DNA of 64,000 bases from positions 204,719 through 268,718 of the forward strand of contig MFNK01000003.1 in NCBI GenBank assembly GCA_001782045.1. The letters run 5' to 3'. Below are positions 45,885 to 63,048 of this stretch, in pieces. The DNA is from Candidatus Levybacteria bacterium RIFCSPHIGHO2_01_FULL_36_15b (GTDB lineage: Bacteria; Patescibacteriota; Microgenomatia; Levybacterales; UBA12049). Below the pieces are notes generated by a model. The model searched no databases and was not told the DNA's origin. It saw only the letters and a list, made by a program, of their open reading frames with translations. The first letter of the stretch is position 1, and each line of letters starts with the position of its first letter. A program made the translations under genes and the position numbers.

Positions 45885-46421
45885 TCAAAAAGAGGAAATA
45901 ACTTCTTTCGCTTTTAGCTTTCTTTCCAAAATACTTTCTATAAATCTATGCGTATTAAAATCTAAATCTTGCTCTATACTTGAAAATCCAAGAAGCTTTA
46001 AGAGACTTATTTCAAAATGATTTACTACAATTTTTGGATCTTTCCCCTTTTCAATATCCAAAAGAGTAGTTTTTAAAAGTTCAAAAATCTGCTGACTTTC
46101 CTGATTTTCAGCGCACAAACTATCCACTAATTCACAAATATGATATGCATATCCTATTTTTTTAAGGTCTTTTTTTAAAATACTAAAGTTTGAAAGCGTC
46201 TCGACTTCCGAAAGAGTAAACATAGATTTTCCTTTATATATACTGAATTTGGAATAATTTAAAAGTTCTATGTGTGGAGATCTGCGGCTGGTAATTTTAC
46301 GCACGCCTTTTGCCATTAAGCTTATTTTTCCGTAGTGCTTTGAAAAAACAGTAATTATTCTGTCTGCTTCAGCAAGGCTTTTTCTTTTTAGTACAATACC
46401 TTCGGTTTTGTGCGCTCTCAT
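45885..46421 (-). CDS. recO: DNA repair protein RecO (short form)
   Basis: TEGIVLKRKSLAEADRIITVFSKHYGKISLMAKGVRK matches the RecO N-terminal OB-fold consensus (EGIVL..R.FGE.DRIL..FT...GK....AKGARS). 178 aa. Confidence 0.75.
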   Translation of the reverse strand: MRAHKTEGIVLKRKSLAEADRIITVFSKHYGKISLMAKGVRKITSRRSPHIELLNYSKFSIYKGKSMFTLSEVETLSNFSILKKDLKKIGYAYHICELVDSLCAENQESQQIFELLKTTLLDIEKGKDPKIVVNHFEISLLKLLGFSSIEQDLDFNTHRFIESILERKLKAKEVISSF

Positions 46422-48388: not shown

Positions 48389-48430
48389 AAATAATATGAT
48401 AGCCTGAAATGCTTAAGTGTGTCAACCCAA

Positions 48431-49084
48431 CTAATTTAGGGTTACATGAATTCTCGATTGCGTTATGTTTGCAGGAAAATTTAGTTGAGTCTTCATTTGA
48501 ACTTGGTATGTTTTTTTCCCATTATCATAAATTAGCGCGTCCGAGACGACATAAGAAGACGCACCATTTGCCGAGACTTCACTGTTCCAAACGGGATGAT
48601 TATCGGTTTTATTATAAAGCCTAATCCATATTATTTGATTCCCCGTTGGAATTTGCGTAGATACTTCAAACCTTACTTCCTTAATGTTTACATAATTACC
48701 TAAATCAAAAGATACCTGTAGGCCTTCTACATCAGCCCAGTCAGACGAGCTGTTCGTTCCGGAACCAAAGGAAATAAAGTAATCCTTAATATTGTTTTTA
48801 CTTGTTTCATAATTAGATATATTTGAACTTTCTTCGACAAAAGGAGTAGGAGAATTAGTAGGAGAGTTAATAGGAGAAGGTGAAGGATTTGAGGTTTTTT
48901 CGCTTATTATAGCTTGGGGCTTAAGTATGAATGAATAAATTACTGCAAGATTTGTAACAATTATTATTGCGCATACAGCGATAATAAAAAAGGCATTTCT
49001 TACTCTTTTCTCGTCGAGCTTTATTCTTTGTTCGTCTTTCTCAAGTTCTCTTTCAAGATTTTCTACTTCTTTTGATTCATCCAT
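48431..49084 (-). CDS. Hypothetical bitopic membrane protein: cytoplasmic coiled-coil, one TM helix, Ser/Pro linker, beta-rich outer domain
   Basis: 217 aa. EVENLERELEKDEQRIKLDEKR, TM AFFIIAVCAIIIVTNLAVIYSFIL, SPSPINSPTNSPTP linker. Confidence 0.4.
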   Translation of the reverse strand: MDESKEVENLERELEKDEQRIKLDEKRVRNAFFIIAVCAIIIVTNLAVIYSFILKPQAIISEKTSNPSPSPINSPTNSPTPFVEESSNISNYETSKNNIKDYFISFGSGTNSSSDWADVEGLQVSFDLGNYVNIKEVRFEVSTQIPTGNQIIWIRLYNKTDNHPVWNSEVSANGASSYVVSDALIYDNGKKTYQVQMKTQLNFPANITQSRIHVTLN

Positions 49085-49088
49085 TATC

Positions 49089-49745
49089 TTAGAGCGCGCC
49101 TTTACCCGAAATCATAGCCCAGGGAGTTTTTAAAATAATCCACAAGTCATAAATAATTGAGCGTTTCTTTACGTACATTGCATCCATCTCTATTCTTTTA
49201 TCAAAATTTATTTCAGACCTTCCTGAAACCTGCCAATAACCAGTAACTCCCGGTTTAACCGACAAAACTACTTTTACTGCCCCTTTAGTATGGGGATATT
49301 GTTTTTGCTGTTCTTCCAGTTCGTCAGGGTAATAAGCCCTGGGCCCAACTAGGCTCATCTCTCCTCTTAGAATATTAAAAAACTGCGGAACTTCATCTAA
49401 AGAATGTTTTCTAATAAAATGCCCTACTCTTGTTACTCTTGGATCATCTTTAAGTTTGTAACTTCCTCTTTTATATTCATAAAAAAGTTTTGAATACTCT
49501 GGGTTTTTACGAAGTAGTCTATGTGCATTTTCCACCATACTTCTGAACTTATACATTTTAAACAATTTTCCGCCTCTTCCTACTCTTTTTGGAGTATCAG
49601 CCAAAACAGGACCCTTCGAATCCAATTTTATTAAAACTGCAAGTAGAATTATTAATGGAGAAAATAATATTATGAGGATTAAAGAGAAAATAATATCTAC
49701 CATTCTTTTAATTTTTTCGTAAAACCCGTTCTTGTGCGATTCCAT
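49089..49745 (-). CDS. Polyprenyl-phosphate hexose-1-phosphate transferase (small PglC/WbaP-C-type bacterial sugar transferase); initiating enzyme
   Basis: N-terminal TM hairpin, then KGPVLADTPKRVGRGGKLFKMYKFRSM, EVPQFFNILRGEMSLVGPRA, KPGVTGYWQVSGRS: PF02397 signature. Confidence 0.85.
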   Translation of the reverse strand: MESHKNGFYEKIKRMVDIIFSLILIILFSPLIILLAVLIKLDSKGPVLADTPKRVGRGGKLFKMYKFRSMVENAHRLLRKNPEYSKLFYEYKRGSYKLKDDPRVTRVGHFIRKHSLDEVPQFFNILRGEMSLVGPRAYYPDELEEQQKQYPHTKGAVKVVLSVKPGVTGYWQVSGRSEINFDKRIEMDAMYVKKRSIIYDLWIILKTPWAMISGKGAL

Positions 49746-49748
49746 AAA

Positions 49749-50831
49749 TTAAGTTAAATCCTCGTATTCGGTCCCAGATAAGCTCTCTACGAATTTTTTT
49801 ATTTGAGGTACTGAATCCTTAGGGCAAACCAGTAAAACATCGTCTGTATTAATAATTATAACCTTAGACAAGTCTAATCCTACAACAAGCTGATCGGTAT
49901 AGTTAAATACCAGATTATCGCTGCTTCCTTCAAGCATTACCTTTCCTTTAGTTACATTTTCATGAATTGATATTTGTAAAGCTTCTTTTAATGCTTCCCA
50001 AGCGCCAACATCGCTCCATCCCAAATCGGCTGCAATTACAAATACCTTATCTGTATCTATTTTTTCCAAAATAGCACTATCAAAACTGATTGTTTCAAAC
50101 TCGGGATATGTTTTTTGCATAATTTTCTCATAACTATTGGTTTTATAAGATTTTTGAATATCCATTATTCCTTCCCAAATTTTAGGGGCAAACTTTTCAT
50201 ACTGGGATAAAACAAACTGAGGCGTAGTTACAAAATAACCAGGATTCCATGCATAATTTTGGTTTTCTAAAAATTTTTGTGCCTCCTCAAGTGATGGTCT
50301 GTATATTAATTTTTTAAACTTAAAAATTTTTGTGCCTCTTACGCTATCTATCTCATCTCCAAACTCAATCCATCCCAAATTCTGATTTGCAAATCTTGCT
50401 CTTTGCCCTATAAAAATTAACGAGCTGGGATTACTGGAAACTAATTTTTCAGCAAATAAGAGAACCTCTCTAAATCTTCTTTCTTTCTTAACAAAATGGT
50501 CGCTCCAAATAATCGCAACTGGTTCGTTCGGATTCTCTTTTCCGACAATTCCCATTGCGACTCCAACAGCGGGGCCTACGTCTCTCATTTCCGGCTCAAG
50601 AATAAAATTATCAGAAGGAATTTGAGGAAGGTGCGATCGTACTATATTTTCATACTTCTTACCTGTAGATACATAAATATCTTCGTATTTAAATTCTGGC
50701 TGCAGTCTTTCTACTGCTAGTTGAAGAGTTGATTTATCACCAACGATTTTTTCAAATTGTTTGGGAGTATTTTTTCGCGATAATGGCCAAAGTCGAGTTC
50801 CCACCCCTCCGGCAAAAATAACTACTTTCAT
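49749..50831 (-). CDS. manC: Mannose-1-phosphate guanylyltransferase-like NDP-sugar pyrophosphorylase
   Basis: VIFAGGVGTRLWPLSRKNTPKQF matches the ManC/GMP consensus (ILAGGSGTRLWPLSR..PKQF). 360 aa, no cupin/PMI domain. Confidence 0.75.
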   Translation of the reverse strand: MKVVIFAGGVGTRLWPLSRKNTPKQFEKIVGDKSTLQLAVERLQPEFKYEDIYVSTGKKYENIVRSHLPQIPSDNFILEPEMRDVGPAVGVAMGIVGKENPNEPVAIIWSDHFVKKERRFREVLLFAEKLVSSNPSSLIFIGQRARFANQNLGWIEFGDEIDSVRGTKIFKFKKLIYRPSLEEAQKFLENQNYAWNPGYFVTTPQFVLSQYEKFAPKIWEGIMDIQKSYKTNSYEKIMQKTYPEFETISFDSAILEKIDTDKVFVIAADLGWSDVGAWEALKEALQISIHENVTKGKVMLEGSSDNLVFNYTDQLVVGLDLSKVIIINTDDVLLVCPKDSVPQIKKFVESLSGTEYEDLT

Positions 50832-51895
50832 ACTTTGTTTCTTTCTATAAAATCCAACAAATTTTTCTTAAATTCTTTATGCGAAAATCTTAATGAATTT
50901 TCAATACAAGCTTCTCTATTATATCTATTAGCTTTAAAATTTTCCAACACATTCTCAAGTTCGGGTTCGCTGCCAAAAAATTCCCCGGTTTTTCCCTCTT
51001 TAACTATATCCAAAGCCCCTCCTGCTTTATAAGCAATAACGGGTTTTCCAAAGTATTGTGCCTCTACCATTGCAAGCCCAAAATCCTCAGTAGTAGGAAA
51101 AATAAAAGCACGGCAGTTTAGGTAATAACCGTAAAGCTCCTCTTCTGATAAATTTTTTATAAATTCAATATTGCTGCCCGCTTTCCGTTTTAGCTTACCT
51201 TCTTCCCACCCTGTCCCGATTATTTTCAGCGGCAACTTTAATTTATTAAAAACTGAAATTGCCATGTCAATTCTTTTGTAAGCAACAAGTCTTGATATTA
51301 TAAGAAAATAATTTTGCTCGGCTGGAAGTTTTGGCTTAACATCGGAAATAGAAAGAGGTGGGAAAATTACACTTGAGTTTTGCCCATAATAATTTTTAAT
51401 CCTTTTTTTTACTTCGTTTGATATAGCTATATAATAATCCGGTCTTTGAGAAGCAATTTTATCCCACAGCCTAAGGTAGGAAACTACTGGTTTAGAAAAA
51501 AGCTTAAACAGCCTACCTTTAAAATAAACATTGTAACCGCTCCATAAATATCTAGTTGGAGTTAAGCAATAACATATATGCAAAGTTTTAGGCTTTGTAA
51601 TTATTCCTTTTGCAGATTCACTGGTCACAGAAATAACCAAATCGTAATTTTCAAAGTTAAAACCCTCAAACGCAATTGGCATAAGGGTGGCTAAAAACTC
51701 ATGCCTTGAAGAAGCTCCGGGAATTTTTTGCAAAAAAGAGGTTTTTATATTAAATTTTTTTGCCCAAGGTGCTTTTTCTTTGTTATAAACTGAAGTAAAA
51801 AGATCTGCTTTAGGAAATATTTTATTTAGAGAAAGAAGCACTCTTTCTGCTCCTCCCCATTTATTAACTCTATCGTAAACCAATGCTACTTTCAT
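50828..51895 (-). CDS. GT4 family glycosyltransferase
   Basis: MKVALVYDRVNKWGGAERVL N-terminus. TTEDFGLAMVEAQYFGKPVIAYKAGGALDIV C-terminal motif. Confidence 0.8.
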   Translation of the reverse strand: MKVALVYDRVNKWGGAERVLLSLNKIFPKADLFTSVYNKEKAPWAKKFNIKTSFLQKIPGASSRHEFLATLMPIAFEGFNFENYDLVISVTSESAKGIITKPKTLHICYCLTPTRYLWSGYNVYFKGRLFKLFSKPVVSYLRLWDKIASQRPDYYIAISNEVKKRIKNYYGQNSSVIFPPLSISDVKPKLPAEQNYFLIISRLVAYKRIDMAISVFNKLKLPLKIIGTGWEEGKLKRKAGSNIEFIKNLSEEELYGYYLNCRAFIFPTTEDFGLAMVEAQYFGKPVIAYKAGGALDIVKEGKTGEFFGSEPELENVLENFKANRYNREACIENSLRFSHKEFKKNLLDFIERNKV

Positions 51896-53002
51896 TTATG
51901 CTGAGTTTGCTGAAGTATAAGCTTTCAGTGTTTCCTTAGCCATTTTTTCCCAAGAAAACTTTCTTACTACTAAGAATCCTTTTTCTTTTAAATCTTTACG
52001 AGTTTTTAAATCATTTAAAATTAATTTTAAAATTAACGTTAAATCCTTTGGCTTTTTAGGATCAAAGTAAATAGCAGAATCTTTACAAATTTCTCTATGT
52101 ACGGGAATGTCTGAAAGAATTAATGGAGAACCCGCAGCCATTGCCTCAACCGCGGTTAAAGAAAATCCTTCCATAAAGGAAGGCACAATTGTTGCCACTG
52201 AATTTTTGTATAAGCTATAAAGTTTTTTATCATCCGGATTTTCAATAAATACAACGTTTTTTCCAAGATTTAACTGTTCAACTTTTTCTATAACTCTTTT
52301 ATAAAAAAAATCTTTCCTGCCTACAAGAGCAAGCTTAACCTGCGGATAATCTTTAACAAATTCCCTAAAAGCGAGCAGTAAAATGTCGACATTTTTATGG
52401 GGGTAAAAATTTCCTACCCTTAAAAAATATTTTCCTTTAAAAGGGAATTCAGTATTCGCTTCGTACTCAAATCCACCTTCGTATGTAATGATAATTTTCT
52501 CTTTCTTAACCCAATGGTAGTTTTCTAAAATATTACTTTTTACTGTTTCTGATGGAACAATTATTTTTTTTGCATTTTTTAAAACGTTTGAAAGAATAAA
52601 CCTGTATCCAACTCTTTTTATCCAGTATAGAAAAATAGGCAAAGTGGATGCTTTACCCGTGTTAAATTTATTAACTATTAAATCGTGAATAGTCACTATG
52701 TATGGTTTTTTGTAAAAATATGGAACGCTAAAATACGGAAAATGCATTAAATCAAGGTTCTCTTTATTAATAATCTGCGGAAAATTAATTTGCTCTTCTA
52801 GGCTATGCCAGGGGATATCACAATTTGAAATTTTAAATTTTGAATTTGAAATTTGCAATTTAACGTCTTCATAATCCTCTGATCTAACAAACAATACATA
52901 ATTATTCTTTTTATCAAGCATTTGAAGATTAATAATCAAATTCCTAGTGTACCTACCAACTCCTGTTTGGTTCCAAAGGCGGCAGTCTATTCCAATAAGC
53001 AT
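51896..53002 (-). CDS. GT4 family glycosyltransferase
   Basis: PSFMEGFSLTAVEAMAAGSPLILSDIPVHREI motif. GT-B two-domain length (368 aa). Confidence 0.8.
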   Translation of the reverse strand: MLIGIDCRLWNQTGVGRYTRNLIINLQMLDKKNNYVLFVRSEDYEDVKLQISNSKFKISNCDIPWHSLEEQINFPQIINKENLDLMHFPYFSVPYFYKKPYIVTIHDLIVNKFNTGKASTLPIFLYWIKRVGYRFILSNVLKNAKKIIVPSETVKSNILENYHWVKKEKIIITYEGGFEYEANTEFPFKGKYFLRVGNFYPHKNVDILLLAFREFVKDYPQVKLALVGRKDFFYKRVIEKVEQLNLGKNVVFIENPDDKKLYSLYKNSVATIVPSFMEGFSLTAVEAMAAGSPLILSDIPVHREICKDSAIYFDPKKPKDLTLILKLILNDLKTRKDLKEKGFLVVRKFSWEKMAKETLKAYTSANSA

Positions 53003-53032
53003 GATGTTAATTATAGCCTAAAGTGCGCTTTG

Positions 53033-54244
53033 TTATAAAGAAGACATATAAACCTTTTCTAGCTTTACGGAAATTTTCTCCCAATCATAATTTTCTTCAA
53101 CAAAGTTTCTTGCATTATGAGTAAGCTTTCGATAAAGACTTGAATCAGTCAAAAGATTAACCACACAATTTGCTAAATCAATTGAACTTTCAGAAGCTAA
53201 AACGTGCGTACCGTTTTTTGCAGATAATCCCTCTATTCCTAAACTTGTCGTTACTACTCCGACTCCGCTTGACATAGCTTCAAGAATTTTATAACTCGTT
53301 CCCCCGCCAGCTCTTAGGGGAGCCAAAAGCAAATAGGAACGCCTGAAAATTTCAGGCGTTTCAAGTTTTTGATTTTTTTCAAATATAATATCTTTCGACT
53401 CGTATTTTTTAAGGTTATCGGGAATATTCTTTCCTACTACCCAAAGCTTTAAATCTATTTTTTTATTAAGCTCTGAAAGCTCTTTTATCACTCTTGGCCA
53501 AATTTCCTTTAAAATAAACTCCAGGGCATCTCTATTTTGCAACCATCTAAAGTCTCCTATAAAAAGAACCTTTCTTTCGTTTCCTATTTTTTCAAAATTT
53601 CTGAATGTGAATTTTTTTGTGTCTACTCCGTTTGGCACTAGTACAACATCTCTTCTTTTCATTAACCTTTTTTCTACCTCCGAAACGGCGATAAGCTTAT
53701 CTACCTTTTTCCATGCAGCTTCCTCTTTTCTTTTAATCTTAACAACATCTATATATAAAAACGGCCTTACAAAGGACAAGCTCAAGTCTGAATATTTTTT
53801 GTAAACAAGATATTCTATATTATGCTCTGCCAGAACAACCGGAAGAAAAGTTTTGGGAATATTCTGCAGCACATAGAAAGTCTCAACGTGTATTAAGTCA
53901 AAACTTGTCTTTACCAATTCATCTCTTATTAAGCTTTTCATTTCTTCGCTTTTGTGCCCTGTTAGAAGAAAAGGGTCAGATGAAAAGCCTGTTTTTAAAA
54001 TATTAGAAACACTCCATTGTTTTTTCCTCCTTACTGTTATAACTTTCGTACAGATTTTTTTTATTTCATCCACGTCTTCCTCTGTTTGATAATCCCTTTT
54101 TTCGCAAATTAAGGTTATATTATGTCTATTGGATAGATTTTTTATCAAATTATAAAGCCTGATGTGTCCACCAGACGTAAGCGGATAAGGCAAAAATGAC
54201 GAAACCATTAATATTTTCATCCCGTTAGAAAACTCTCCTTTCAA
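53033..54244 (-). CDS. GT4 family glycosyltransferase
   Basis: FLPYPLTSGGHIR N-terminal motif, GGGTSYKILEAMSSGVGVVTTSLGIEG C-terminal motif. Confidence 0.8.
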   Translation of the reverse strand: MKGEFSNGMKILMVSSFLPYPLTSGGHIRLYNLIKNLSNRHNITLICEKRDYQTEEDVDEIKKICTKVITVRRKKQWSVSNILKTGFSSDPFLLTGHKSEEMKSLIRDELVKTSFDLIHVETFYVLQNIPKTFLPVVLAEHNIEYLVYKKYSDLSLSFVRPFLYIDVVKIKRKEEAAWKKVDKLIAVSEVEKRLMKRRDVVLVPNGVDTKKFTFRNFEKIGNERKVLFIGDFRWLQNRDALEFILKEIWPRVIKELSELNKKIDLKLWVVGKNIPDNLKKYESKDIIFEKNQKLETPEIFRRSYLLLAPLRAGGGTSYKILEAMSSGVGVVTTSLGIEGLSAKNGTHVLASESSIDLANCVVNLLTDSSLYRKLTHNARNFVEENYDWEKISVKLEKVYMSSL

Positions 54245-54298: not shown

Positions 54299-55732
54299 TC
54301 ATTCTAGTTTAAAAATGACATACTGACTTGTCTTTTCAATTATTTGATAAGTGTTTCCAAGACCCAAATCAACAGGCGTAGGATTAGCAAGAACTAAATA
54401 ATCTGCCCCCATTTTTACCATTTCTGGTATAGATTTTTCAAAACTTGCCCAACCCTTTCTTTTTGTCTGATATAGAAAGGTTGTATCTCCATTATAAATC
54501 GCGATAATTTTTGCGTCCTTAGGAGTTAGCCTATCAACGGCTGCACCGGCCGCAATAATTGATGGATTATTAATATTGAAATAATCTTTTACCTGATTCC
54601 ATCCTAAAACAAAAAGTGAAATAAGGCTTAAAACTAAAATGGCTTTACCTACTTCAAGACTTTTATACTTGTATCTATATAAAAATATCGCGCCAAGTGC
54701 AAAGAAAATCGAGACTGTGGGCATAATAAGGATTTGGTAATAGTCGTGTTGCACATTTCCTGTTGCAAACACAGTAACATATAAAAGAGAACTTACTCCA
54801 AAAGTCGCGATAAAAAGCCTGTCTTTATATTGTTTTAAATTTAGTATTCCTGAAATTAAAATAATTACTCCAAAATATCCACTAATCAAAGCCGTTAGCC
54901 TTTCATAAAAAATCCAACGAAAAAATGAAGGCCTAAATCTTATTCCATTACCATTTAAAAGCCATCCACTCGCAGGTATCCCTGCAGGAAAATTTTGTAT
55001 CCAAAGTCTCCAAAAAAGTAAGGGCAAAAGACTTACTAATGCATAAAACCAAAGCCTCCAGTTTTTAAATACTGAGTTGCCAAATTTTTCATACGCAAGA
55101 TAAACAATGGGTAAGACAAAAAATAAAGCGTAGGGTTTTAAAAGCAGGGCAGATATCATAAACAGCAGCGAGATAACAAAATAAATTACCTGCTTAGATT
55201 TTTCTCCAAGCCAAAGCTGAAAAAAATACGTTGCACCTGTAACTGCCATAATCATCATAGAATCCGGCAAGATTGCCCGGCTATAAAAAATATTGTATGG
55301 AATAAATAGGTAGAAAAAGGCGGAAACAATCCCTAGTATATTTTGTTTGCGATATGAAAAAATTAAATACAAAAATACTGCGGAACAAAGAGAGGAAAAA
55401 ATAGAAACCAGTCTTCCCCATTCTTCTAGGGTAAATACTCCTACTAAATTATAAAGTGCAGCATGGAAAAAATTATAAAGAGGAAACTCTACAAATCGAT
55501 AACCCTCTGGATTGTCATAAATACCTGATGGTACGTTTGAAAGATCGTCAAACTTTGGATAAAGTAAATTAATTCCGTTGTTTACAAAGTTTCGTGATAC
55601 TGCAGAAGTATCAGCTTGACGCCAACTGTGCCAATCCGCAACTGGTCCGTCAAATCGATAAAGACGTGCTAAAAAACCGCAACAAAGTAAAACTGCTAAT
55701 ATAAAAATTTCAATCTTCTTTCCTAATGTCAT
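54299..55732 (-). CDS. GT-C-like polytopic membrane glycosyltransferase candidate
   Basis: 477 aa, about 11 TM helices, first loop HSWRQADTSAVSRNF (Asp-containing loop motif), no soluble domain. 4-nt overlap with the upstream gene. Confidence 0.55.
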   Translation of the reverse strand: MTLGKKIEIFILAVLLCCGFLARLYRFDGPVADWHSWRQADTSAVSRNFVNNGINLLYPKFDDLSNVPSGIYDNPEGYRFVEFPLYNFFHAALYNLVGVFTLEEWGRLVSIFSSLCSAVFLYLIFSYRKQNILGIVSAFFYLFIPYNIFYSRAILPDSMMIMAVTGATYFFQLWLGEKSKQVIYFVISLLFMISALLLKPYALFFVLPIVYLAYEKFGNSVFKNWRLWFYALVSLLPLLFWRLWIQNFPAGIPASGWLLNGNGIRFRPSFFRWIFYERLTALISGYFGVIILISGILNLKQYKDRLFIATFGVSSLLYVTVFATGNVQHDYYQILIMPTVSIFFALGAIFLYRYKYKSLEVGKAILVLSLISLFVLGWNQVKDYFNINNPSIIAAGAAVDRLTPKDAKIIAIYNGDTTFLYQTKRKGWASFEKSIPEMVKMGADYLVLANPTPVDLGLGNTYQIIEKTSQYVIFKLE

Positions 55733-58700
55733 TTATTAACTTTTGGTTGGTTTCTAGTGGTTACTTCGGTAAGGCTTCCGTCGCTGTTGAATACAAATAT
55801 CTTGTCTGTTCTTGAACTCCCTACTGCCTGCAAAGCATCATTTAGATTGGTATCCTTGTATATTTTTACGCTATCGTTTTTAACTGCAAACCATACTGCG
55901 TCATCAAGCCCAACCGGGAAAACCCAGGCTTGTCCCCACTTTATCGGAACATTTAAGAAGTGGAAGCTTAAATCTTTATTTGACCAATAATCGCTGTAAT
56001 ATGAATCAAAGGATATAAAGAAGTTCTTAACTTTGGTAGATGAACCATGCCAATCGGCAGCGCTTTGTTGAAATGAAATTATGTGAAAGAAACCATAAAT
56101 TAACAAAAGTACGGCCATTGCAGCAATGGCTACATTTCTTCCGCTTTCTAAAAGAAACTCATATATTTTTTTAAACACTACAACCAAGACAAAAATCACT
56201 CCTATTGTAGAAAGATAGCTATATCTTGAAGTTATATTTCCAAGTCCCAAGTACGGAAGAAGTGAAATAATAAAGAAAGACGCTCCAAAAAATAAAATTC
56301 TTTTATCTATTTGATCAAGAATATTTTTTCCCTTTTTATAAATAAGAGTAATAATTGCAATTCCTATAAAAACTAAACCTCCCGATAAAACCATATTTTC
56401 CCTAAGTAAAATTCTTAAATTTTCATATATGCCTATTGTCGCTTGTCCTAAAATAGCAATAGAAATATACCCCAAAATATTTCCTACAAAATTGAATGGA
56501 AGCTTAACTAAATCATAGTTATAATCTCCGGAAAACCAATGACTATTGGAAAAAAGCCGTAAAACAAAATATAAAACAACTGGAATAAAAAGAATTACAA
56601 AGTCACGTTGTTTGATTTCTGCCATTACTGTATTTAAGTTTGTGTCCTTAAGTCTGTATGCCAACACCAAAAGAGGAAGAACCACGCCTAACTCATGAAA
56701 TAAAAGAGTAAGTGTAAATGAGGCAAACGCTAAAATATAATAATAAACTTTTTTTGTTTCATCCCATTTAATAAAAAGAAGTAAGCCTAAAAGTGCAAAG
56801 ACTGCGGTAAAAAGATGTCCCGTTGCCGCAATCCAAAAAATTATTTCGGAGTAGCCGCTTAATATAAGAAACAGGAATGCGCAGAAAGCGGATAAAAGAG
56901 TACTTTTAAAAACTCTTTTTGCAACAAGGAAAAACAAAACTGAAACAATAAAATGGAGAACTATAGAAACTAAATGATAAACAGCCGGATTTAGCCAAAA
57001 AGTGTTATACATAAAATCGAAGTAAATTTTTGTTCCCGGCCTAAAGAAAAAGCCTCCCGAATCTGTAAAGTAAGTTAACAAATTAGATGGCGCCTTAGCA
57101 GCCCACTTTAGCCAAGTAAAATCATCTCCTGCAAAAAAATTATTTATTAGTGGAGAATATAAAACAATACTAAGTCCAAGAAGATAAATTACAATTGCAT
57201 ATGTAGAAACTGCTGCTTTTTTTAGTTCATCAAATAGATTAATTTCTGATTTTAAATTTAAAACAATTATTCCAAGCGCTATACCCATTAAGATCCATAA
57301 TGTATAAGCAATTTTAGACGCCTCAAAAACGTCTATTAAAAATGCGTTTAAGCCAAGCCCAACCAGTCCTGCCCCAAATCCAAGAAGAAAATTTTTTTCA
57401 ATACCGTAATCTAAACTCTTCCACACCTTTTTAAGATAAATAAAGAAAGAGAAAAATATTGAAAGAAAAGCAATAAATCCTAAAAGGCCTATCTCGCCCA
57501 ATATTCGCAAATAATTATTGTCTACTGCCAAAGTTACCGAACTGTAACCGCTTCCTATTAATATTTGTCTTTGAAAAGCCTCTATCGCCCTTGGCCATTC
57601 TCCTTGAAACCTTGTGGTAAAAGATAAATCGTAAGCAGCAGCTCTTTTAATAATAAAATTTCCATGTAAAACTAAAAATTGGGCCGATGGAGAAGATTTT
57701 ACATCCGGCGGAAACTCATAGAAAAAATTTCCAACTCTTTTTATAACAGGAGAAAGCGCAAGGTTAATGTAGCCTGTTCCTGAAGGTAAGTTTTCACCCG
57801 TTGATAAGTTTACCGCTTTTACCAATGTAACCTCATTTGGAATAAACTTATACGGAAAAATTGCAGAAGGTGAAGAATTTTTTTCTCCCGCTAAAGCGTT
57901 AACAAGTTCTTCCTGATCTTTTACTCGCTGCGATAAAACAATTTTGTCTTGGAAAAATTCTTTTGAAACAAATTTTACATGACCAATGGAGTTTCCTGTA
58001 TTTGCATCTACCAATACATCTACCGTATCTACAGTATTTTGGAATCTCTGCAAAATAGTTGGTTTTAACGCCAAGAAAAGAAGTGCTCCGATTATAATAA
58101 CGGGTACGGAATATAAGACTAATTTTCTCTTTTGAAAGAAAAAAACTATAAATAAGGACACAAAAACCACCACAAACGAGACCCTAGAAACTGTCATAAA
58201 TAGTAACCAGAAAGAAAGCAAGGTTGTAAAAAGAATAATACCCTTAACGAGAAAATTCTTGATTACAAAAAATAAACTGACCAGTATTGGAATCATTAAG
58301 ACTAAATAAGCGGCTAAATCGTAGTGCCCGGCAAAAGTTGACGGAACGCGCGAAAGCTCGGAAAGCTGTATCGGTATCCCCTTTGCAAACTCTTCGTTGC
58401 TTGTTAAAAATGCAGGAAAACCAAAATACTTTTGTCCAAACCCATAAAAAATAATTGCAAGAAGAGTAATAAGTATGGTGCCAATAACAAAGTACAAAAG
58501 TTTCCTGTCTTTCATTCCCTGATAGGCAACAAAAAATAAGCTCAAATATTCAACATGCCTAACTAAGGCAAGAAATGCTACATTTGGAAATGTATTTGCA
58601 AGTGTAGGAAATATTAAAAGTACACCGTGAATTGTTGCAACAGCACCTACTATCCAGAATATTAGAATAGGAAAGGTCAAAGGAGTACGTAACGTAATTT

Positions 58701-58893
58701 TTTTGCGCACAAGTAAAGCTAGCCAGGAAAGAAGCACGCCAAGAACCAAAAAATCTTCTGCTCTTATATAAACCCAAGTATTATTAACATTTATTAAAGG
58801 AAGCTTTGGATAAAGAGGGATAAATGCAAGAAGCACTAACGTTTCAACAAATAATAAATTAGCTTTAACAAAGTTATAAATTTTTTTAATCAT
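55729..58893 (-). CDS. Fusion protein: Wzy_C (O-antigen ligase/PglL/PilO-type) domain plus C-terminal GT-C (PMT-like) domain
   Basis: Residues 1-560: polytopic, with a large outer loop ending GSGYSSVTLAVDNNYLRILGEIGLLGF, which matches the Wzy_C signature G.G.......HN.YL....E.G..G. Residues 560-1054: a second polytopic module with loop NFFAGDDFTWLKWA (acidic-pair motif as in PMT/ArnT) and a C-terminal soluble domain. Confidence 0.65.
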   Translation of the reverse strand: MIKKIYNFVKANLLFVETLVLLAFIPLYPKLPLINVNNTWVYIRAEDFLVLGVLLSWLALLVRKKITLRTPLTFPILIFWIVGAVATIHGVLLIFPTLANTFPNVAFLALVRHVEYLSLFFVAYQGMKDRKLLYFVIGTILITLLAIIFYGFGQKYFGFPAFLTSNEEFAKGIPIQLSELSRVPSTFAGHYDLAAYLVLMIPILVSLFFVIKNFLVKGIILFTTLLSFWLLFMTVSRVSFVVVFVSLFIVFFFQKRKLVLYSVPVIIIGALLFLALKPTILQRFQNTVDTVDVLVDANTGNSIGHVKFVSKEFFQDKIVLSQRVKDQEELVNALAGEKNSSPSAIFPYKFIPNEVTLVKAVNLSTGENLPSGTGYINLALSPVIKRVGNFFYEFPPDVKSSPSAQFLVLHGNFIIKRAAAYDLSFTTRFQGEWPRAIEAFQRQILIGSGYSSVTLAVDNNYLRILGEIGLLGFIAFLSIFFSFFIYLKKVWKSLDYGIEKNFLLGFGAGLVGLGLNAFLIDVFEASKIAYTLWILMGIALGIIVLNLKSEINLFDELKKAAVSTYAIVIYLLGLSIVLYSPLINNFFAGDDFTWLKWAAKAPSNLLTYFTDSGGFFFRPGTKIYFDFMYNTFWLNPAVYHLVSIVLHFIVSVLFFLVAKRVFKSTLLSAFCAFLFLILSGYSEIIFWIAATGHLFTAVFALLGLLLFIKWDETKKVYYYILAFASFTLTLLFHELGVVLPLLVLAYRLKDTNLNTVMAEIKQRDFVILFIPVVLYFVLRLFSNSHWFSGDYNYDLVKLPFNFVGNILGYISIAILGQATIGIYENLRILLRENMVLSGGLVFIGIAIITLIYKKGKNILDQIDKRILFFGASFFIISLLPYLGLGNITSRYSYLSTIGVIFVLVVVFKKIYEFLLESGRNVAIAAMAVLLLIYGFFHIISFQQSAADWHGSSTKVKNFFISFDSYYSDYWSNKDLSFHFLNVPIKWGQAWVFPVGLDDAVWFAVKNDSVKIYKDTNLNDALQAVGSSRTDKIFVFNSDGSLTEVTTRNQPKVNK

Positions 58894-58897
58894 CTAT

Positions 58898-59461
58898 TTA
58901 TCTAAACCATGCAGCTCTTCCAAGTTTGTAGTTTGGATTTTTATTTTGTCTTTCCCCTATTTCCTTTGCTGGAACTCCTCCAACAATCTTAAACTCATCT
59001 ACATCCTTTGTTACTACAGCACCTGCTCCAACAACTGCTCCTTTCTTAATTGTTACCCCGGGTAGAATAATGGCTCGTGGTCCAATAAATACGTAATCAT
59101 CTATATTAACAGGTCCAAGGACTGCTTTTTCCACGTCTGCAAAATCTTCTTCGGACAAATTATGTTGTGAATTGTAAATCATAACTTCCGATGCTATGTC
59201 TACGTGATCTCCTATGTTTAAAGAAGCGCGGCCGTCCAAAACTGCATTTTCTCCAACAATCGTATCTTTTCCTATTCTAATATTGGGTGGGTAATAAAAA
59301 TTAGCCCACATATGAATAGTAGAGCCCGTGCCGATTTTAATTCCACAAAGTCGGTAAAAAAATCTTCGAAGATGATGAGAAGGAATGTGCCCAACCCATC
59401 TGAGCTTCATCACGATAATCTCCCAAAAAACCGTTTTTAATCTCCTGTAAATTCTATTCAT
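58898..59461 (-). CDS. Left-handed beta-helix (hexapeptide repeat) acetyltransferase, WcaF/MAT-like
   Basis: IGKDTIVGENAVLDG...IGDHVDIASEVMIY...DDYVFIGPRAIILPGVTIKKGAVVGAGAVVTKDV hexapeptide repeats. 187 aa. Confidence 0.8.
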   Translation of the reverse strand: MNRIYRRLKTVFWEIIVMKLRWVGHIPSHHLRRFFYRLCGIKIGTGSTIHMWANFYYPPNIRIGKDTIVGENAVLDGRASLNIGDHVDIASEVMIYNSQHNLSEEDFADVEKAVLGPVNIDDYVFIGPRAIILPGVTIKKGAVVGAGAVVTKDVDEFKIVGGVPAKEIGERQNKNPNYKLGRAAWFR

Positions 59462-60564
59462 TTCAAACTTTCTAAAACCCTAAGAGTCTCTTTGGCTGTC
59501 TTTTCCCAGGAAAACTTTTTAACTTGTGCCTTACCCTTTTCTATCATCGCATTTCGCAATTTATCATCAGTTAAAACTCTTTTTATTTGTCTTGCTATAT
59601 CCTCGGAGTCTGTAGGATCAAAATACAAAGCGGCATCTCCGCCTGCTTCAGGCAGAGAAGAAACGTTACTAATAAGCACCGGACAGCCGTATTTCATCGC
59701 CTCCAAAACCGGTAGTCCAAATCCTTCATAAAGACTAGGAAGCACAAAGCAAGCTGCATTTTTGTATAAAGATGGCAAATCATCATCTTCCACAAAATCT
59801 AAAAACTTCACTCTGTCTTCCACGCCATACCTTTTAGGAGATCTAAGAATATCTTCATACTGCCAACCTTTTTTACCTACAATAACCAAGGAAAGATCGC
59901 TTTTTGAAAGCATAGAAAAAGCCTCTACTAGTCTTTCTATGTTTTTTCTTGGCTGGAGAGTTCCCACAAAAAGAATATAATTCCCTTTTACACCAAACTT
60001 CTTTGATAAATCTTCCATACTCAATACCTTATTCTTTATACCTGATACTTGTTTTATTCCCGGATATGTTACGTGAACGTTATTTTCGTCCACACTGTAT
60101 GTTTTGATTATATCATCCTTGCTGGAAGTACTAATAGTAAAGATAGCCTTAGCTTTTGCAACAGAATATTTAGTCCAGTTGGTAAGTTGATACAAATCCT
60201 TTTTCAAAAAAAGCTCCGGGTAAAATATATAGGATATATCCATTATGGAAATAGTAGTTGGTATTGGAGAGAATCTTGGAGCGTAATGCGTTGGAGTAAA
60301 AAATATATCAGGTTTTCTATATAAGTATAAATTTATTGGAAGAGCAAATTGGGTCCATAATTTTTTAGGGCCTACAATATTATATGAAAAGTTAGACGTT
60401 GGAGTCGGCATGTGATGTTTTGGCGTTTCTTTAAGATAAATAATAAATCTTGCGCTTTGGGTTTTTAATTTTTGAAACTCATTAATAATTTCAAACGCGT
60501 ATTCTCCAATCCCAACTCTTCTATCTACATTTGCTTCATTCCCGTCAATTCCAATATTTATCAT
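59458..60564 (-). CDS. GT4 family glycosyltransferase
   Basis: PSLYEGFGLPVLEAMKYGCPVLISNVSSLPEAGGDAALYF motif. 368 aa. Confidence 0.8.
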   Translation of the reverse strand: MINIGIDGNEANVDRRVGIGEYAFEIINEFQKLKTQSARFIIYLKETPKHHMPTPTSNFSYNIVGPKKLWTQFALPINLYLYRKPDIFFTPTHYAPRFSPIPTTISIMDISYIFYPELFLKKDLYQLTNWTKYSVAKAKAIFTISTSSKDDIIKTYSVDENNVHVTYPGIKQVSGIKNKVLSMEDLSKKFGVKGNYILFVGTLQPRKNIERLVEAFSMLSKSDLSLVIVGKKGWQYEDILRSPKRYGVEDRVKFLDFVEDDDLPSLYKNAACFVLPSLYEGFGLPVLEAMKYGCPVLISNVSSLPEAGGDAALYFDPTDSEDIARQIKRVLTDDKLRNAMIEKGKAQVKKFSWEKTAKETLRVLESLK

Positions 60565-60597: not shown

Positions 60598-62472
60598 TTA
60601 TTTAACTTGTGTGGGATCAATATTAAAAATATAAATTAACCAACCAAAACATAGGATTAGTAGAATAAGTAAGAAGGGATTTTTCAACCCTATAGGCAGT
60701 CTTTTATACACCAGATACAAAACAACTCCTAATAAAAAATGGACTAATGGATATATTAAGAAACTTATTAAAAGATTATTCCATATTTTACCGAAATTAA
60801 ATTTTAAAAGAGACGCTGCTTGATAAGCGAGGAAGTCTTGATTTATGAAATATAGCGATGTTTTAGAAATACTTACTCCCAAAAACCTAAGTGCATCCAA
60901 GCTTAATCCAAAATAATATCTGTCTCCAAGTTGAATGTAGCGAGGAAGGGTAAGAATAAAATCAAGACCGAAACTCAGTGGCACAAAAAGAAGCATTTTT
61001 TTATTAAACTTTTTACTTATAAAGTAAAAAATGGATAAACTCAATAATATACATAGAGACTTAAACAATAATAAATTGTCTACAACGGGGCCGTAGAAAA
61101 CTAACCAGCTGAACTGAATATGAGATCTCATTAAAAGTCCGAAGCTTGCAAAGATGAAAAGAAAAGCAATAAACCAGATACCAAGTTTTTTCAACTTTTT
61201 AAAAATAATTAATGAAAAAAATATTATTAACAGAATAATTTGATCTGAGTAATTTTCTTTATTGGTAGATGTATTTGAGGACAAAGCTCTGTTTAGAAAG
61301 CTTTGATTATCTTCAATAAAATAATCTGCAAAGGATTTGTTTAACTCATATTTAATTCTGTCTCTCAAATATGCATTTTCTCTTACTTTTGTACTTAATA
61401 ACCATGTAGATAATTCATCTGCCAGTGTGATTTTTTCAGGAAACTTAGGGTAGACCTTTTGAAAAGTTTCGGCAAAATCTTGCATGGTAACAAATTCTAA
61501 GTTTGGGTATTTTGAGAGATTTTCTAGTTGATTTTTGTATTCTTCCAAGTAATCTACACTTTCGCTTCCTGTTTCTAAACCAACCGTCACCTGCCCTAGC
61601 TGGTTATGACAATCTAGGTAAACCTTAATTAAGTCATTAAAATAATTCGTATTCTCTCCTTGCTTAATATAATCATTAGCCTGAAGAGAGTAATTAGAGA
61701 ACTCTGGCCCTTGCCCATGTGCCTTTGTTAAATCCCTTTGGGCCCATTGAATTATTACAACATTTTGTTTATTTTCTAAATTGCTTGCTGGAGTGAGAAT
61801 ATTAGCCTTGGAAGGATAAAATGGTACCCCCCACCATTGTCCCCAAACTCCATAACTATCGGTTGTTTTTTGGTCTGCAAGTATTAAGGCCGAAGTTATA
61901 CTAAATTTTTCGACCATGTAATTTAAAGAAAAAGAGTCTATCCACCAAGCACCTACCGATTTAGGATAATAGCTGTTTTGATTTTTAAATTTCTCAAAAA
62001 GCGTATCTATCAATTTTATTCTTTCAGATTGTGTGTAACCTGATAAAAAAGCTGCATTAGGAAAAAACCAAGGAGTGTTTACGGGATAAATTACTCTTGC
62101 ATCACTGGCCAGCTGTGGAGAGATTTCTAACAACAGACCTTTTTCTTGCTTTGGGTTAAGCCCTTTTATTTGTTCCATTAGTTTTTTATCGGAGAAAACA
62201 TCGTATTGCAAAAGCCAAGTAGCAGGAAACCCTCTTTGTTTAATAGATGAGTATTGGTTTATTAAGGGATTTAGACTTTTATCAAGCCACAATGACCTTG
62301 ATCTAACTGGATTTACTAGTGTTACAAATCTATTGTTGCAACTTATACTACTTTCGTATGCCAGGGCAGAGGTGATATTTAAAAGATAAAACAAGAATCC
62401 TAAAAGAAATACCAAAAATGTTAAAAGGAGGCTCTGTTTAATGTTAATAGTGTTTAAAAAGCTTTTCATCAA
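60598..62472 (-). CDS. Hypothetical membrane protein: N-terminal TM, roughly 380-aa extracytoplasmic domain, C-terminal 6-7 TM bundle
   Basis: 624 aa. The track start is TTG; the ATG at 62469 is more likely. No family recognised by eye (no NodB or GH motifs found). Confidence 0.4.
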   Translation of the reverse strand: MMKSFLNTINIKQSLLLTFLVFLLGFLFYLLNITSALAYESSISCNNRFVTLVNPVRSRSLWLDKSLNPLINQYSSIKQRGFPATWLLQYDVFSDKKLMEQIKGLNPKQEKGLLLEISPQLASDARVIYPVNTPWFFPNAAFLSGYTQSERIKLIDTLFEKFKNQNSYYPKSVGAWWIDSFSLNYMVEKFSITSALILADQKTTDSYGVWGQWWGVPFYPSKANILTPASNLENKQNVVIIQWAQRDLTKAHGQGPEFSNYSLQANDYIKQGENTNYFNDLIKVYLDCHNQLGQVTVGLETGSESVDYLEEYKNQLENLSKYPNLEFVTMQDFAETFQKVYPKFPEKITLADELSTWLLSTKVRENAYLRDRIKYELNKSFADYFIEDNQSFLNRALSSNTSTNKENYSDQIILLIIFFSLIIFKKLKKLGIWFIAFLFIFASFGLLMRSHIQFSWLVFYGPVVDNLLLFKSLCILLSLSIFYFISKKFNKKMLLFVPLSFGLDFILTLPRYIQLGDRYYFGLSLDALRFLGVSISKTSLYFINQDFLAYQAASLLKFNFGKIWNNLLISFLIYPLVHFLLGVVLYLVYKRLPIGLKNPFLLILLILCFGWLIYIFNIDPTQVK

Positions 62473-62478
62473 TTCTAA

Positions 62479-63048
62479 TCATATTCCTGCTCCTATCACT
62501 TCAAGTCTTTCTTGCGGAATTCCTAAAATCTCTGTAGCATCTTTTTTTGTCGACTGCGAAATACAAAGAATTTTAGAAGTTTCTTTTTTAACCCATTCGA
62601 GCTTTCTTTTTTGAGAAGCTACAATGTTTGGTGAGATTATAAATTTGAGAGGATTAAATTCTGTTTCCTGATGAGTCTCCTCTGGATATTTGTAAACTAT
62701 TAAATCATAAAGAATTGTTGCTTTTTTTGCTTTTTTTACAGGTGGTTCTGTCCAATCGGAGGTTATAAAAATATCAACATCTCCGATAAAATTTTCAATT
62801 GGCATAATATGCAGTCTATTCCATAGTAAATCTAAAATAGTCGGAGGAATCCTAAACTGTTTTATTAAAACATTATTAGATTTAAGATTTAAGATTTCAG
62901 ATTTAAGATTCTTTCTTAGCGAAGAGTAAAATAGAATATATTTATTCTGCTCATCAAGCTTAAGCAACTCTTCGATTAATGAGCTAAGATAATTTGCCAC
63001 TCCAGTATTTTCAAAAGCAAGCTGTGAGATATCTATTCCAATTCTCAT
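62479..63048 (-). CDS. GT4 N-terminal (Glyco_trans_4-like) domain only; truncated glycosyltransferase or gene remnant
   Basis: 189 aa. MRIGIDISQLAFENTGVANY start, typical of the GT4 N-domain. The ORF stops where the C-terminal Glycos_transf_1 domain would begin. The next gene, 6 nt downstream, is an unrelated membrane protein. Confidence 0.55.
   Translation of the reverse strand: MRIGIDISQLAFENTGVANYLSSLIEELLKLDEQNKYILFYSSLRKNLKSEILNLKSNNVLIKQFRIPPTILDLLWNRLHIMPIENFIGDVDIFITSDWTEPPVKKAKKATILYDLIVYKYPEETHQETEFNPLKFIISPNIVASQKRKLEWVKKETSKILCISQSTKKDATEILGIPQERLEVIGAGI

Follow-up and report, generated by a model that had tools for sequence, protein, structure and literature searches.

A minus-strand gene of a Levybacteria genome (candidate phyla radiation) encodes a real, uninterrupted membrane protein of 1054 residues, in which an N-terminal module of the WaaL/Wzy_C type (GT-C(B)) is followed by a second polytopic module of the GT-C(A) type. 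Both folds are recognizable, each module harbors conserved candidate catalytic residues, and the gene resides in a conserved operon. Most bacteria of the candidate phyla radiation have never been cultured, and little is known of their surface chemistry. We consider it fairly probable that the fusion is a bifunctional enzyme, whose catalytic modules both point outward from the cytoplasmic membrane and act on a shared surface glycoconjugate. Positions refer to the window, i.e. the whole stretch of 64,000 nucleotides that was analyzed, and are collected in Table 1.

Integrity of the fusion gene

In line with the initial annotation, positions 55729-58893 hold an open reading frame of 1054 codons plus stop, for which ~25 TM helices are predicted. 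The gene runs on the minus strand, the plus-strand reading being riddled with stops. It begins 4 nt past the stop codon of the acetyltransferase gene located upstream, and its own stop codon overlaps with the start codon of the PMT_2 gene that follows (ATGA). It is not a chance ORF, given its length of 3.2 kb in DNA of 33% GC and its many full-length homologues: more than 120 protein clusters with 54-98% identity, all of them 1045-1090 residues long, at a query coverage of 97-100%. The identical protein is present on seven contigs and under two GenBank accessions (Table 1).

The boundary between the modules, initially placed around position 57200, lies close by in a short cytoplasmic linker (aa ~546-563, window ~57205-57258). 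A frameshift or assembly join at this boundary had been named as a finding that would undo the fusion, and there is none: the frame is unbroken in the window, GC content is even across the ORF (0.31-0.36) and the homologues are full length. Two contigs carry split relatives (L004 and L005; loci of ERZ1761213 and SRR29757259), in which the modules are encoded by neighboring, overlapping genes that separate precisely at the linker. These separate ORFs would fit a merger of two neighboring genes by sequencing or assembly error, as would the position of their break at an A-run, where a one-base difference shifts the frame. Such an artefact can nevertheless be dismissed, since the same continuous protein recurs on seven contigs and in two MAG records, many independent assemblies contribute to the full-length clusters, and both modules share one frame at every junction-spanning locus among the loci of 80 species-representative genomes. 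Adjacent as they are when encoded separately, and split in the linker, the modules are separable units that are kept together.

Table 1 Features of the fusion gene and its operon in window coordinates
Feature	Position	Strand	Evidence or remark
Whole ORF	55729..58893	-	1054 aa + stop; full-length homologues; identical to OGH11553.1/OGH35628.1
N-module, aa 1-550	57244..58893	-	WaaL/Wzy_C-type (GT-C(B)), 12 TM helices
Arg237 (TVSR motif), invariant	58183..58185	-	Placed opposite essential Arg215 by low-probability hhalign to EcWaaL; motif agrees
Beta-rich insert, aa ~286-423	57625..58038	-	Within large outer loop TM9-TM10
Wzy_C signature loop, aa 426-473	57475..57618	-	Pfam stretch, EcWaaL motif alignment, invariant residues
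Cytoplasmic linker, aa ~546-563	57205..57258	-	A7 run at 57217-57223
C-module membrane part, aa 564-943	56065..57204	-	GT-C(A)-type, ~13 TM helices
First outer loop FAGDDFTWLKW, aa 587-597	57103..57135	-	Conserved residues; motif shared with standalone members
C-terminal soluble alpha/beta tail, aa 944-1054	55732..56064	-	AF2 secondary structure, pLDDT mostly >80; hydropathy
GT2, 311 aa, two C-terminal TM helices	63045..63980	-	Pfam; ArnC/GtrB/PgfS/AglJ-like; conserved place
189-aa GT4 N-half ORF	62479-63048	-	Pfam
GT4 glycosyltransferase	59458..60564	-	Pfam; synteny
WcaF-like hexapeptide sugar acetyltransferase	58898..59461	-	Immediately upstream
PMT_2 GT-C enzyme, 477 aa	54299..55732	-	Immediately downstream, overlapping start; conserved in related loci
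Downstream operon block, including the following three rows	49089..54244
Three GT4 glycosyltransferases	53033-54244, 51896-53002, 50828-51895	-	Synteny
ManC mannose-1-phosphate guanylyltransferase	49749-50831	-	Synteny
WbaP/WcaJ-type phosphoglycosyltransferase	49089-49745	-	Synteny

Two GT-C modules in one chain

The N-module displays a WaaL-type fold, with 12 TM helices and a large outer loop that connects TM9 to TM10; both its ends are read as cytoplasmic by the positive-inside rule. Its identification as Wzy_C, to be checked by Pfam scan, stood only in part. The fusion's own sequence scores 15.9 bits as a whole protein and 16.9 bits as the N-half alone, below the gathering score of 31.7, but the predicted structure supports the identification, as do relatives that exceed the cut-off, both fused (P0127, 35.8 bits; P0130, 35.3 bits) and as split N-genes (L004, 32.3 bits; L005, 33.1 bits). 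Putative membership in the Wzy_C family follows from homology to these sequences, its own score aside. A beta-rich insert of ~140 residues, which matches no known fold, cuts the Wzy_C signature in two and splits the Pfam match, with aa 419-477 corresponding to HMM positions 75-149. The signature loop is composed of TTRFQGEWP, which holds Arg428, GSGYSS and DNNYLRILGEIGLLG. All motifs quoted in the initial annotation are present, namely GSGYSS (aa 447-452), DNNYLRILGEIGLLGF (aa 458-473) and, in the C-module, GDDFTW (aa 589-594).

Two arginines each are essential in E. coli WaaL (R215 and R288) and in PglL (R224 and R298) (PMC3643930). In the fusion, R237 and R428 are invariant in both alignments, A1 and A2. 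R237 lies opposite R215 in an hhalign comparison of A2 with E. coli WaaL, which has a probability of just 0.5% but agrees with the motif, and R428 is paired with R288 by motif only. The essential histidine (H338 in E. coli WaaL, H349 in PglL) has no counterpart: ungapped alignment of HNEII..G..G with DNNYL..G..G positions the invariant Asp458 at the His site, gapped local alignment positions Asn459 there, and neither yields a His. Given an Asp, or an Asn when gapped, at this site, the N-module may work by a different chemistry, or the residues may be misaligned, the hhalign probability being very low. Candidate catalytic residues that are invariant or nearly so comprise R237, R428, D458, D521, E524 and K527, and this conservation extends down to ~31% overall identity.

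The PglL_A motif (PF15864), defined in PMC3643930, gave no Pfam match with the whole protein at E <=1 or with the N-half at E <=10. With an Asp at the catalytic His site and no match to the PglL-specific model, the assignment as a PglL-like oligosaccharyltransferase is unsupported. An alternative reading is a protein O-glycosylation machine, in which a PglL-like N-module would load Ser/Thr residues of pilins or S-layer proteins with an Und-PP-glycan and a PMT-like C-module would O-mannosylate the same proteins; we regard this function as unlikely. The fusion shares its Wzy_C core with PglL/PilO, and its operon resembles Pgl loci in composition. There is no indication of a protein acceptor for the fusion.

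The C-half matches no Pfam or NCBIfam model even at E 10, so that the proposed scan for PMT/PMT_2 came back empty, and searching the complete set of PDB sequences with the A1 and A2 profiles produced no meaningful match. Comparison of the family profile by hhalign with the neighboring PMT_2 protein (7% probability) and with a 624-aa neighbor (0.2%) was unusable, whereas distant standalone relatives pass the PMT_2 cut-off of 26.1 bits (P0244, 34.1; P0262, 31.9). The link of the modules to known enzymes comes from fold comparison only, which identifies the membrane domain of the C-module as a GT-C(A) fold. Two modules are present, as initially described, but they are not unrelated folds; current classification divides the GT-C fold into two subclasses, and the N-module represents GT-C(B), the C-module GT-C(A) (PMC10920833).

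The first outer loop of the C-module carries D590 and D591 eight residues past the TM helix at aa 564-582. All sequences have Asp591, and at least 90% of them have Asp590; standalone family members likewise display a DDF[VTI]W[LI] motif right after TM1. D590 and D591 are predicted to be the two catalytic acids of this module. Together with this pair, R618, H640, E683, E734, R779 and R890 are invariant or nearly so. The C-module family is large, with 8759 representative proteins matching at E <=1e-3, mostly without a Pfam model, and the fusion offers a first functional handle on these thousands of GT-C proteins, a family that lacks annotation. True standalone relatives are more distant and comprise 450-510 aa. 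Four apparent standalone C-modules of ~530 aa (P0121, P0126, P0142 and P0164) turned out to be fragments starting at contig ends. The soluble C-terminal tail noted earlier spans aa ~944-1054, is predicted to lie outside the cytoplasm, and has conserved residues W948, P983, W990 and P993-G995. No WWD motif, as in the WWDYG signature, occurs anywhere in the translated fusion, and the tail is just ~110 aa long.

Hydropathy, model helices and the positive-inside rule place the candidate catalytic residues of both modules in outer loops or at outer helix ends; the exact helix count and the relative position of the active sites are from hand analysis. A protein with a single catalytic module, its partner being reduced to a scaffold for binding the lipid carrier or substrate, for example an N-module inactive for lack of the catalytic His, would fit the Asp at the site of the essential His of WaaL/PglL, and Wzy_C and PMT_2 scores that are sub-threshold or absent. 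It is, however, quite improbable in view of the dense invariant charged residues on the predicted outer face of both modules, including the WaaL-type arginines and the DD pair. Degenerate modules usually lose conserved charged residues, and an Asp can in principle act as a base.

Conserved operon and proposed pathway

Relatives of the fusion were identified in at least 589 species-representative genomes, with titles naming Levy-, Roizman-, Gottesman- and Woesebacteria. The gene order, GT2, GT4, acetyltransferase, fusion, PMT_2, three GT4, ManC and phosphoglycosyltransferase, is constant in essentially all 80 loci and likewise found in a distant relative of 25% identity, placing fusion and operon among the most rigidly conserved glycan loci of one large class, Microgenomates. 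Being rigid in so many genomes, the operon probably marks a core envelope glycoconjugate. In all related loci with sufficient flanking sequence, the acetyltransferase gene precedes the fusion, and the downstream enzyme passes the Pfam PMT_2 cut-off (29.9 against 26.1 bits).

The GT2 gene at the operon head is ArnC-like, its product scoring 182.7 bits over its full length for the ArnC model (PRK10714, NCBIfam), 140.5 bits for PgfS and 88.7 bits for AglJ, all below the equivalog cut-offs. It is the predicted polyprenyl-phosphate sugar synthase for the GT-C modules. GT2 genes beside standalone or split C-modules (L089 and L090) are not ArnC-like and give no support for a pairing of synthase and GT-C enzyme. 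No flippase (GtrA, MATE, SMR or Wzx) was seen within the operon among ORFs of at least 80 aa; the sole Wzx-type gene in the window, at 5842-7059, is ~50 kb away.

The covalent link between the modules acts as a "Rosetta stone", pointing at a ligase- or polymerase-type step and a polyprenyl-phosphate-sugar step in one pathway. In such a pathway, the phosphoglycosyltransferase, the GT4 enzymes, ManC and the acetyltransferase would generate an Und-PP-linked oligosaccharide, while the ArnC/GtrB-like GT2 would supply a polyprenyl-P-sugar. The N-module, as a WaaL/Wzy_C-type enzyme, would then move the undecaprenyl-diphosphate-linked glycan en bloc, acting either as a ligase that serves the final acceptor or as a polymerase that serves the next repeat unit. 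The C-module, a GT-C(A) enzyme of an unmodelled family at the PMT_2 fringe, would transfer one sugar at a time, taken from a polyprenyl-monophosphate donor, both modules presumably acting on the same surface glycoconjugate of the single-membrane Microgenomates. To our knowledge, these bacteria have no LPS.

Two modes of coupling are conceivable. The GT-C(A) module may install or complete the sugar that the ligase module uses as acceptor, as in WadA, the nearest precedent and likewise a ligase with two functions (PMC9938171; PMC10920833), whose second domain adds a sugar then used by the ligase as acceptor and thereby provides a ready model (PMC9938171). Alternatively, it may decorate the glycan before or after transfer, following the logic of the Gtr systems; three-component GT2/flippase/GT-C systems, which glycosylate outside the cytoplasm, are a further precedent (PMC11127046). 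The sequential en bloc transfer and decoration suggested initially fits the operon and is plausible.

Whether the N-module ligates or polymerizes is not separated by its fold, because the only solved relative is a ligase. A Wzy-type repeat-unit polymerase, with the GT-C(A) module adding a side-branch sugar per repeat and a separate enzyme attaching the polymer to the wall, is a tentative alternative: Wzy_C and the GT-C(B)/GT-C1 clan hold polymerases as well as ligases (PMC10920833), the fusion is the only Wzy_C gene of the operon, and glycosylation by GT-C enzymes after polymerization is established in Gtr systems (PMC11127046). Arguing against it, the operon revealed no Wzz-like regulator of chain length, and conservation is unusually strong class-wide, with N-module residues invariant to ~31% overall identity. 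Such conservation would be unusual for Wzy polymerases, which are highly variable.

A further-reaching version of the bifunctional reading, for which the odds are rather low, is a novel class of two-site outer-face envelope enzyme. Its GT-C(A) module would build or complete the acceptor with a polyprenyl-P-sugar, and its WaaL-like module, with Asp at the site taken by His in every characterized ligase and O-oligosaccharyltransferase, would load it with the Und-PP-glycan, at the core of an essential, class-wide lipoglycan or wall-glycan pathway of Microgenomates.

Comparison with known systems

STT3/PglB enzymes share the GT-C(A) fold with the C-module and are its top Foldseek hits, but compared with PglL and STT3/PglB the fusion has no PglL_A match, conserved catalytic His or WWDYG motif. 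With respect to GT-C(A) enzymes using polyprenyl-phosphate sugars (PMT/PMT_2 of GT39, ArnT of GT83, GtrC-type O-antigen glucosyltransferases and GT136 three-component systems), the C-module differs in having no match among the Pfam and NCBIfam models or the PDB sequences and in being fused to a ligase-type enzyme, and no single solved family stands out. Gtr-like three-component systems have their ArnC/GtrB-like GT2 in common with the fusion operon, in which no dedicated GtrA, MATE or SMR flippase was seen among ORFs of at least 80 aa.

The N-module is most readily compared with WaaL (PF04932; GT121; GT-C(B); for example that of Cupriavidus, 7TPG/7TPJ, or E. coli). Unlike WaaL, the fusion scores below the Pfam cut-off, harbors a ~140-residue beta-rich insert in the catalytic loop, and displays an invariant Asp where WaaL has the essential His338. 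It also resides in a host without a lipid A-core acceptor and carries a second enzyme at its C-terminus. For enzymology, it thus represents a natural GT-C(B)-GT-C(A) tandem with a WaaL-like site in which an Asp replaces the catalytic His.

Fused glycosyltransferases are common. Literature searches on Wzy_C with PMT_2, on fused GT-C and O-antigen ligase in the candidate phyla radiation and on O-antigen of Microgenomates retrieved nothing relevant on this architecture, in agreement with the initial annotation, which was not aware of a previous description. No concept is overturned by the fusion, as another bifunctional ligase, WadA of Brucella and Mesorhizobium (GT25 + GT121), is already known. 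Both proteins join a ligase-type module to a second glycosyltransferase. In WadA, however, the partner is a soluble, cytoplasmic GT-A-type GT25 domain using a nucleotide sugar, which puts the membrane between the two active sites; Pfam scans of the fusion detected neither GT25 nor any other soluble glycosyltransferase domain. In the fusion the ligase module is N-terminal, the reverse of the WadA domain order, and its partner is a 13-TM GT-C(A) module, with both sites predicted to face outward and both donors predicted to be lipid-linked.

Integrity and distribution of the fused reading frame

As the initial annotation proposed, the fusion is encoded by a single open reading frame of 1054 codons, which lies on the minus strand; a plus-strand reading of the same interval contains stops throughout and was rejected. 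All quoted motifs are present in the translation, namely GSGYSS (aa 447–452), DNNYLRILGEIGLLGF (aa 458–473), and GDDFTW (aa 589–594), and translation and hydropathy confirmed a hydrophilic C-terminal tail of ~110 residues. The gene is tightly packed, with its ATG 4 nt downstream of the acetyltransferase gene stop and its own stop overlapping the start of the next gene downstream (ATGA). A check for a frameshift or assembly join near position 57200 was negative, the frame being unbroken and the composition even across the gene. Seven contigs encode the identical protein, and two GenBank MAG records list it as a “hypothetical protein” of Candidatus Levybacteria (OGH11553.1 and OGH35628.1). Its full-length homologues form more than 120 clusters, all of 1045–1090 aa, at 54–98% identity and 97–100% query coverage, and every junction-spanning locus among the 80 related loci kept carries both modules in one frame. 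On these combined grounds an artefactual origin was rejected, its probability being negligible.

Several ~530-aa “standalone” C-modules proved to be fragments at contig ends. In two related loci (L004 and L005), the Wzy_C part and the C-module are separate genes, which lie side by side, overlap, and have the same operon surroundings as the fusion. Both breaks fall exactly in the linker, at a run of five or six A, and deleting one A would give a single frame in either locus. The window linker has a run of seven A at this position, and the longest A run measures 5–8 in 52 of 75 junctions (74 related loci and the window). These were the only two split versions found, each one extra A away from an in-frame fusion, and could be due to gene fission, sequencing error, or a homopolymer switch. 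Whatever the cause of the splits, each module forms a unit of its own and is kept beside the other.

Relatives occur in at least 589 genomes, scanned at one genome per species, with titles naming Levy-, Roizman-, Gottesman-, and Woesebacteria, all Microgenomates. Many MAG records among them are titled “uncultured Gammaproteobacteria”, which we read as a placeholder, since loci of such MAGs match Microgenomates loci. Public records name the fused proteins “hypothetical protein” or “O-antigen ligase family protein”, leaving the C-module unrecognised. No description of the architecture was found in the literature searched, an absence that is not proof. Fused glycosyltransferases are common in general; this one combines two known enzyme classes in a domain architecture that is real, widely conserved, and apparently undescribed.

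Domain architecture and candidate catalytic residues

Hydropathy and an AlphaFold2 model based on 48 homologues (pLDDT 78.3, pTM 0.75) divide the protein into an N-module (aa 1–550), an 18-residue linker (aa ~546–563), and a C-module (aa 564–1054). The N-module has 12 TM helices and short Lys/Arg-rich loops on one side, which we read as cytoplasmic. Its 180-residue TM9–TM10 loop holds a beta-rich insert (aa ~286–423), for which a search detected no structural relative, followed by the Wzy_C signature. The C-module comprises ~13 TM helices, a first outer loop of 50 residues that contains a DD pair, and a tail of alpha/beta type. The positive-inside rule predicts that both ends of the N-module are cytoplasmic, and that the C-module starts in the cytoplasm and ends outside. 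This topology, derived by hand for both modules, would leave each of their conserved charged residues in an outer loop or at the outer end of a helix.

Pfam assignment as Wzy_C fails for the window sequence itself (15.9 bits vs. a cut-off of 31.7), with a match split in two because the beta-rich insert divides the domain, and holds for fused relatives (P0127 and P0130) as well as for the separate N-module genes of L004 and L005. NCBIfam yielded a faint IctB-family match only, and profile searches against PDB sequences were empty. The suggested PMT-like nature of the C-module likewise finds no Pfam match in this half even at E 10, and is supported by two standalone relatives (P0244 and P0262) that pass PMT_2. 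An exhaustive C-module search with an E limit of 1e-3 returned 8759 representative proteins; among them are true standalone enzymes of 450–510 aa that begin with a short tail, TM1, and the same DDF[VTI]W[LI] motif as in the fusion. At the sequence level, homology to the passing relatives closes the gap left by the weak scans of both modules. Because standalone relatives share the DDF motif and two of them pass PMT_2, the C-module is placed in a GT-C(A) family that is large, borders PMT_2, and is covered by essentially no existing model. The initial view of two different folds had to be revised, as GT-C(B) and GT-C(A) are two subclasses within one fold class (PMC10920833); in current terms, the fusion is a GT-C(B)–GT-C(A) tandem.

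E. coli WaaL requires R215, R288, and H338, with R224, R298, and H349 as PglL counterparts (PMC3643930). Invariant R237 (TVSR) falls on WaaL R215 by hhalign, at very low probability, and invariant R428 (TTRFQGEW) on R288 by motif alignment. No His occupies the H338 position in either the motif or the gapped alignment: the former (HNEII..G..G/DNNYL..G..G) places invariant Asp458 there, the latter Asn459. This lack of His, together with the absence of a PglL_A motif and of WWDYG from the fusion, argues against a PglL/PMT-like protein O-glycosylation machine, which we consider unlikely. The N-module has further invariant residues at its outer face: K30, R44, D47, R112, E115, H190-Y191-D192, R283, R463, E467, D521, E524, and K527. 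In the C-module, D591 is invariant, and D590, W594, R618, H640, E683, E734, R779, and R890 are conserved in at least 90% of sequences. Given this conservation of charged residues, both modules look catalytically competent, and degeneration of one of them is quite improbable.

Operon context and neighbouring glycan genes

Gene order around the fusion is identical in essentially all 80 related loci; a 936-kb contig shows it as well, as does a relative whose C-module is only 25% identical. The operon runs from an ArnC/GtrB-like GT2 via a GT4 N-half ORF, a GT4, a WcaF-like acetyltransferase, and the fusion to a 477-aa PMT_2 GT-C enzyme, three GT4s, ManC, and a WbaP/WcaJ-type phosphoglycosyltransferase, followed by an anchored protein and a DUF4012 protein. 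Along its whole length, the GT2 is similar to ArnC (182.7 bits); it also matches PgfS and AglJ, and it has the two C-terminal TM helices that characterise synthases of polyprenyl-phosphate sugars. Genes for both substrate routes are thus present in the operon, one leading to an Und-PP-linked oligosaccharide (phosphoglycosyltransferase, GT4s, GDP-mannose supply, and acetylation) and the other to a polyprenyl-P-monosaccharide (GT2). No flippase was found within the operon; a Wzx gene lies ~50 kb away, inside a second glycan cluster.

The GT4 N-half ORF contains only the N-terminal half of a GT4 enzyme, with a sub-threshold Glyco_transf_4 match. Since nearly all related loci keep it as a separate gene upstream of a complete GT4, it seems to encode a true small protein and not to be the remnant of a pseudogene. 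Between the two lies, in the otherwise syntenic operon, an ORF with an N-terminal anchor, ~5 C-terminal TM helices, and no Pfam or NCBIfam match; as none of the 80 related loci has a counterpart, it represents an insertion specific to this Levybacteria genome. The 217-aa protein (single TM anchor, Pro/Ser-rich linker, beta-rich outer domain, no family match) and the DUF4012 protein (single anchor, large outer domain), which also follow the phosphoglycosyltransferase in the related locus L002, may be extra outer components of the glycan pathway. In another related locus, L090, the fusion is directly followed by a GT2, a standalone C-module paralogue with a sub-threshold GtrII match, and the PMT_2 gene, which shows that this GT-C family has been duplicated and has diversified inside the operon.

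Three large proteins, each with an N-terminal GT2 domain and a PMT_2/PMT-type GT-C membrane domain, may combine synthase and transferase in a single polypeptide; they share the second glycan cluster with Wzx, methyltransferases, and a GT4. Together with further putative GT-C-type proteins, the 64-kb window may contain seven or more enzymes of GT-C type, a number that seems unusually high for a reduced genome. A division/cell-wall cluster (mraZ, mraW, PBP, Mur ligases, MraY, FtsW, MurG, FtsA, FtsZ, and a second SEDS gene) adjoins the glycan operon, an arrangement not seen in L002.

Positions of the fusion, neighbouring features, and landmarks in related loci
Feature	Sequence	Position	Strand	Length (aa)
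GT2–PMT_2/PMT fusion	window	1720-3903	-	727
Wzx flippase	window	5842-7059
GT2–PMT_2/PMT fusion	window	8342-10600	-	752
GT2–PMT_2/PMT fusion	window	10590-13253	-	887
Putative GT-C type, no family match	window	13213-15027	+	604
Putative GT-C type, PTPS_related (just under cut-off)	window	15027-16748	+	573
Division/cell-wall cluster	window	~19900-44000	-
Second SEDS gene	window	19923-21005
Putative GT-C type, no family match	window	24493-26010	-	505
Putative GT-C type, PMT_2/PMT	window	26056-27717	+	553
Anchored protein and DUF4012 protein	window	46421-49084	-	217 and 655
Fusion	window	55729-58893	-	1054
Linker A7 run	window	57217-57223	-
GT4	window	59458-60564	-
Inserted ORF	window	60598-62472	-	624
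GT4 N-half ORF	window	62479-63048	-	189
Break in linker	L004	~2982-2992
Break in linker	L005	~6001-6020
GT2 and C-module paralogue	L090	6166-8512		286 (GT2), 503 (paralogue)

Proposed activity and comparison with WadA

The fusion is probably a bifunctional enzyme at the outer face of the cell membrane, with both modules serving one surface glycoconjugate. The N-module would transfer a flipped Und-PP-linked glycan en bloc, and the C-module would add one sugar, taken from the polyprenyl-P donor that the operon GT2 produces. The GT-C(A) module might make or complete the acceptor sugar needed by the ligase, by the logic of WadA, whose fused GT adds the last core sugar ahead of ligation (PMC9938171; PMC10920833). 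Alternatively, it might decorate the glycan around the transfer step, as in Gtr-type three-component systems, a precedent for GT-C decoration of a glycan (PMC11127046). That the N-module is a Wzy polymerase and not a ligase is a doubtful though serious possibility; the fold does not discriminate between the two, and a polymerase would be compatible with the bifunctional model. Microgenomates host bacteria lack LPS; candidate acceptors are a glycolipid, the cell wall, and a protein. As a lead, the fusion would be useful to glycobiologists studying the CPR envelope and GT-C enzymology.

The nearest known architecture is WadA, called the first bifunctional O-antigen ligase by its authors in 2023 (PMC9938171). 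Its partner domain is a soluble cytoplasmic GT25, whereas that of the fusion is a second polytopic enzyme that would use a lipid-linked donor. As the GT25 domain is cytoplasmic, the two sites of WadA lie on opposite sides of the membrane, whereas those of the fusion are predicted to share the same side.
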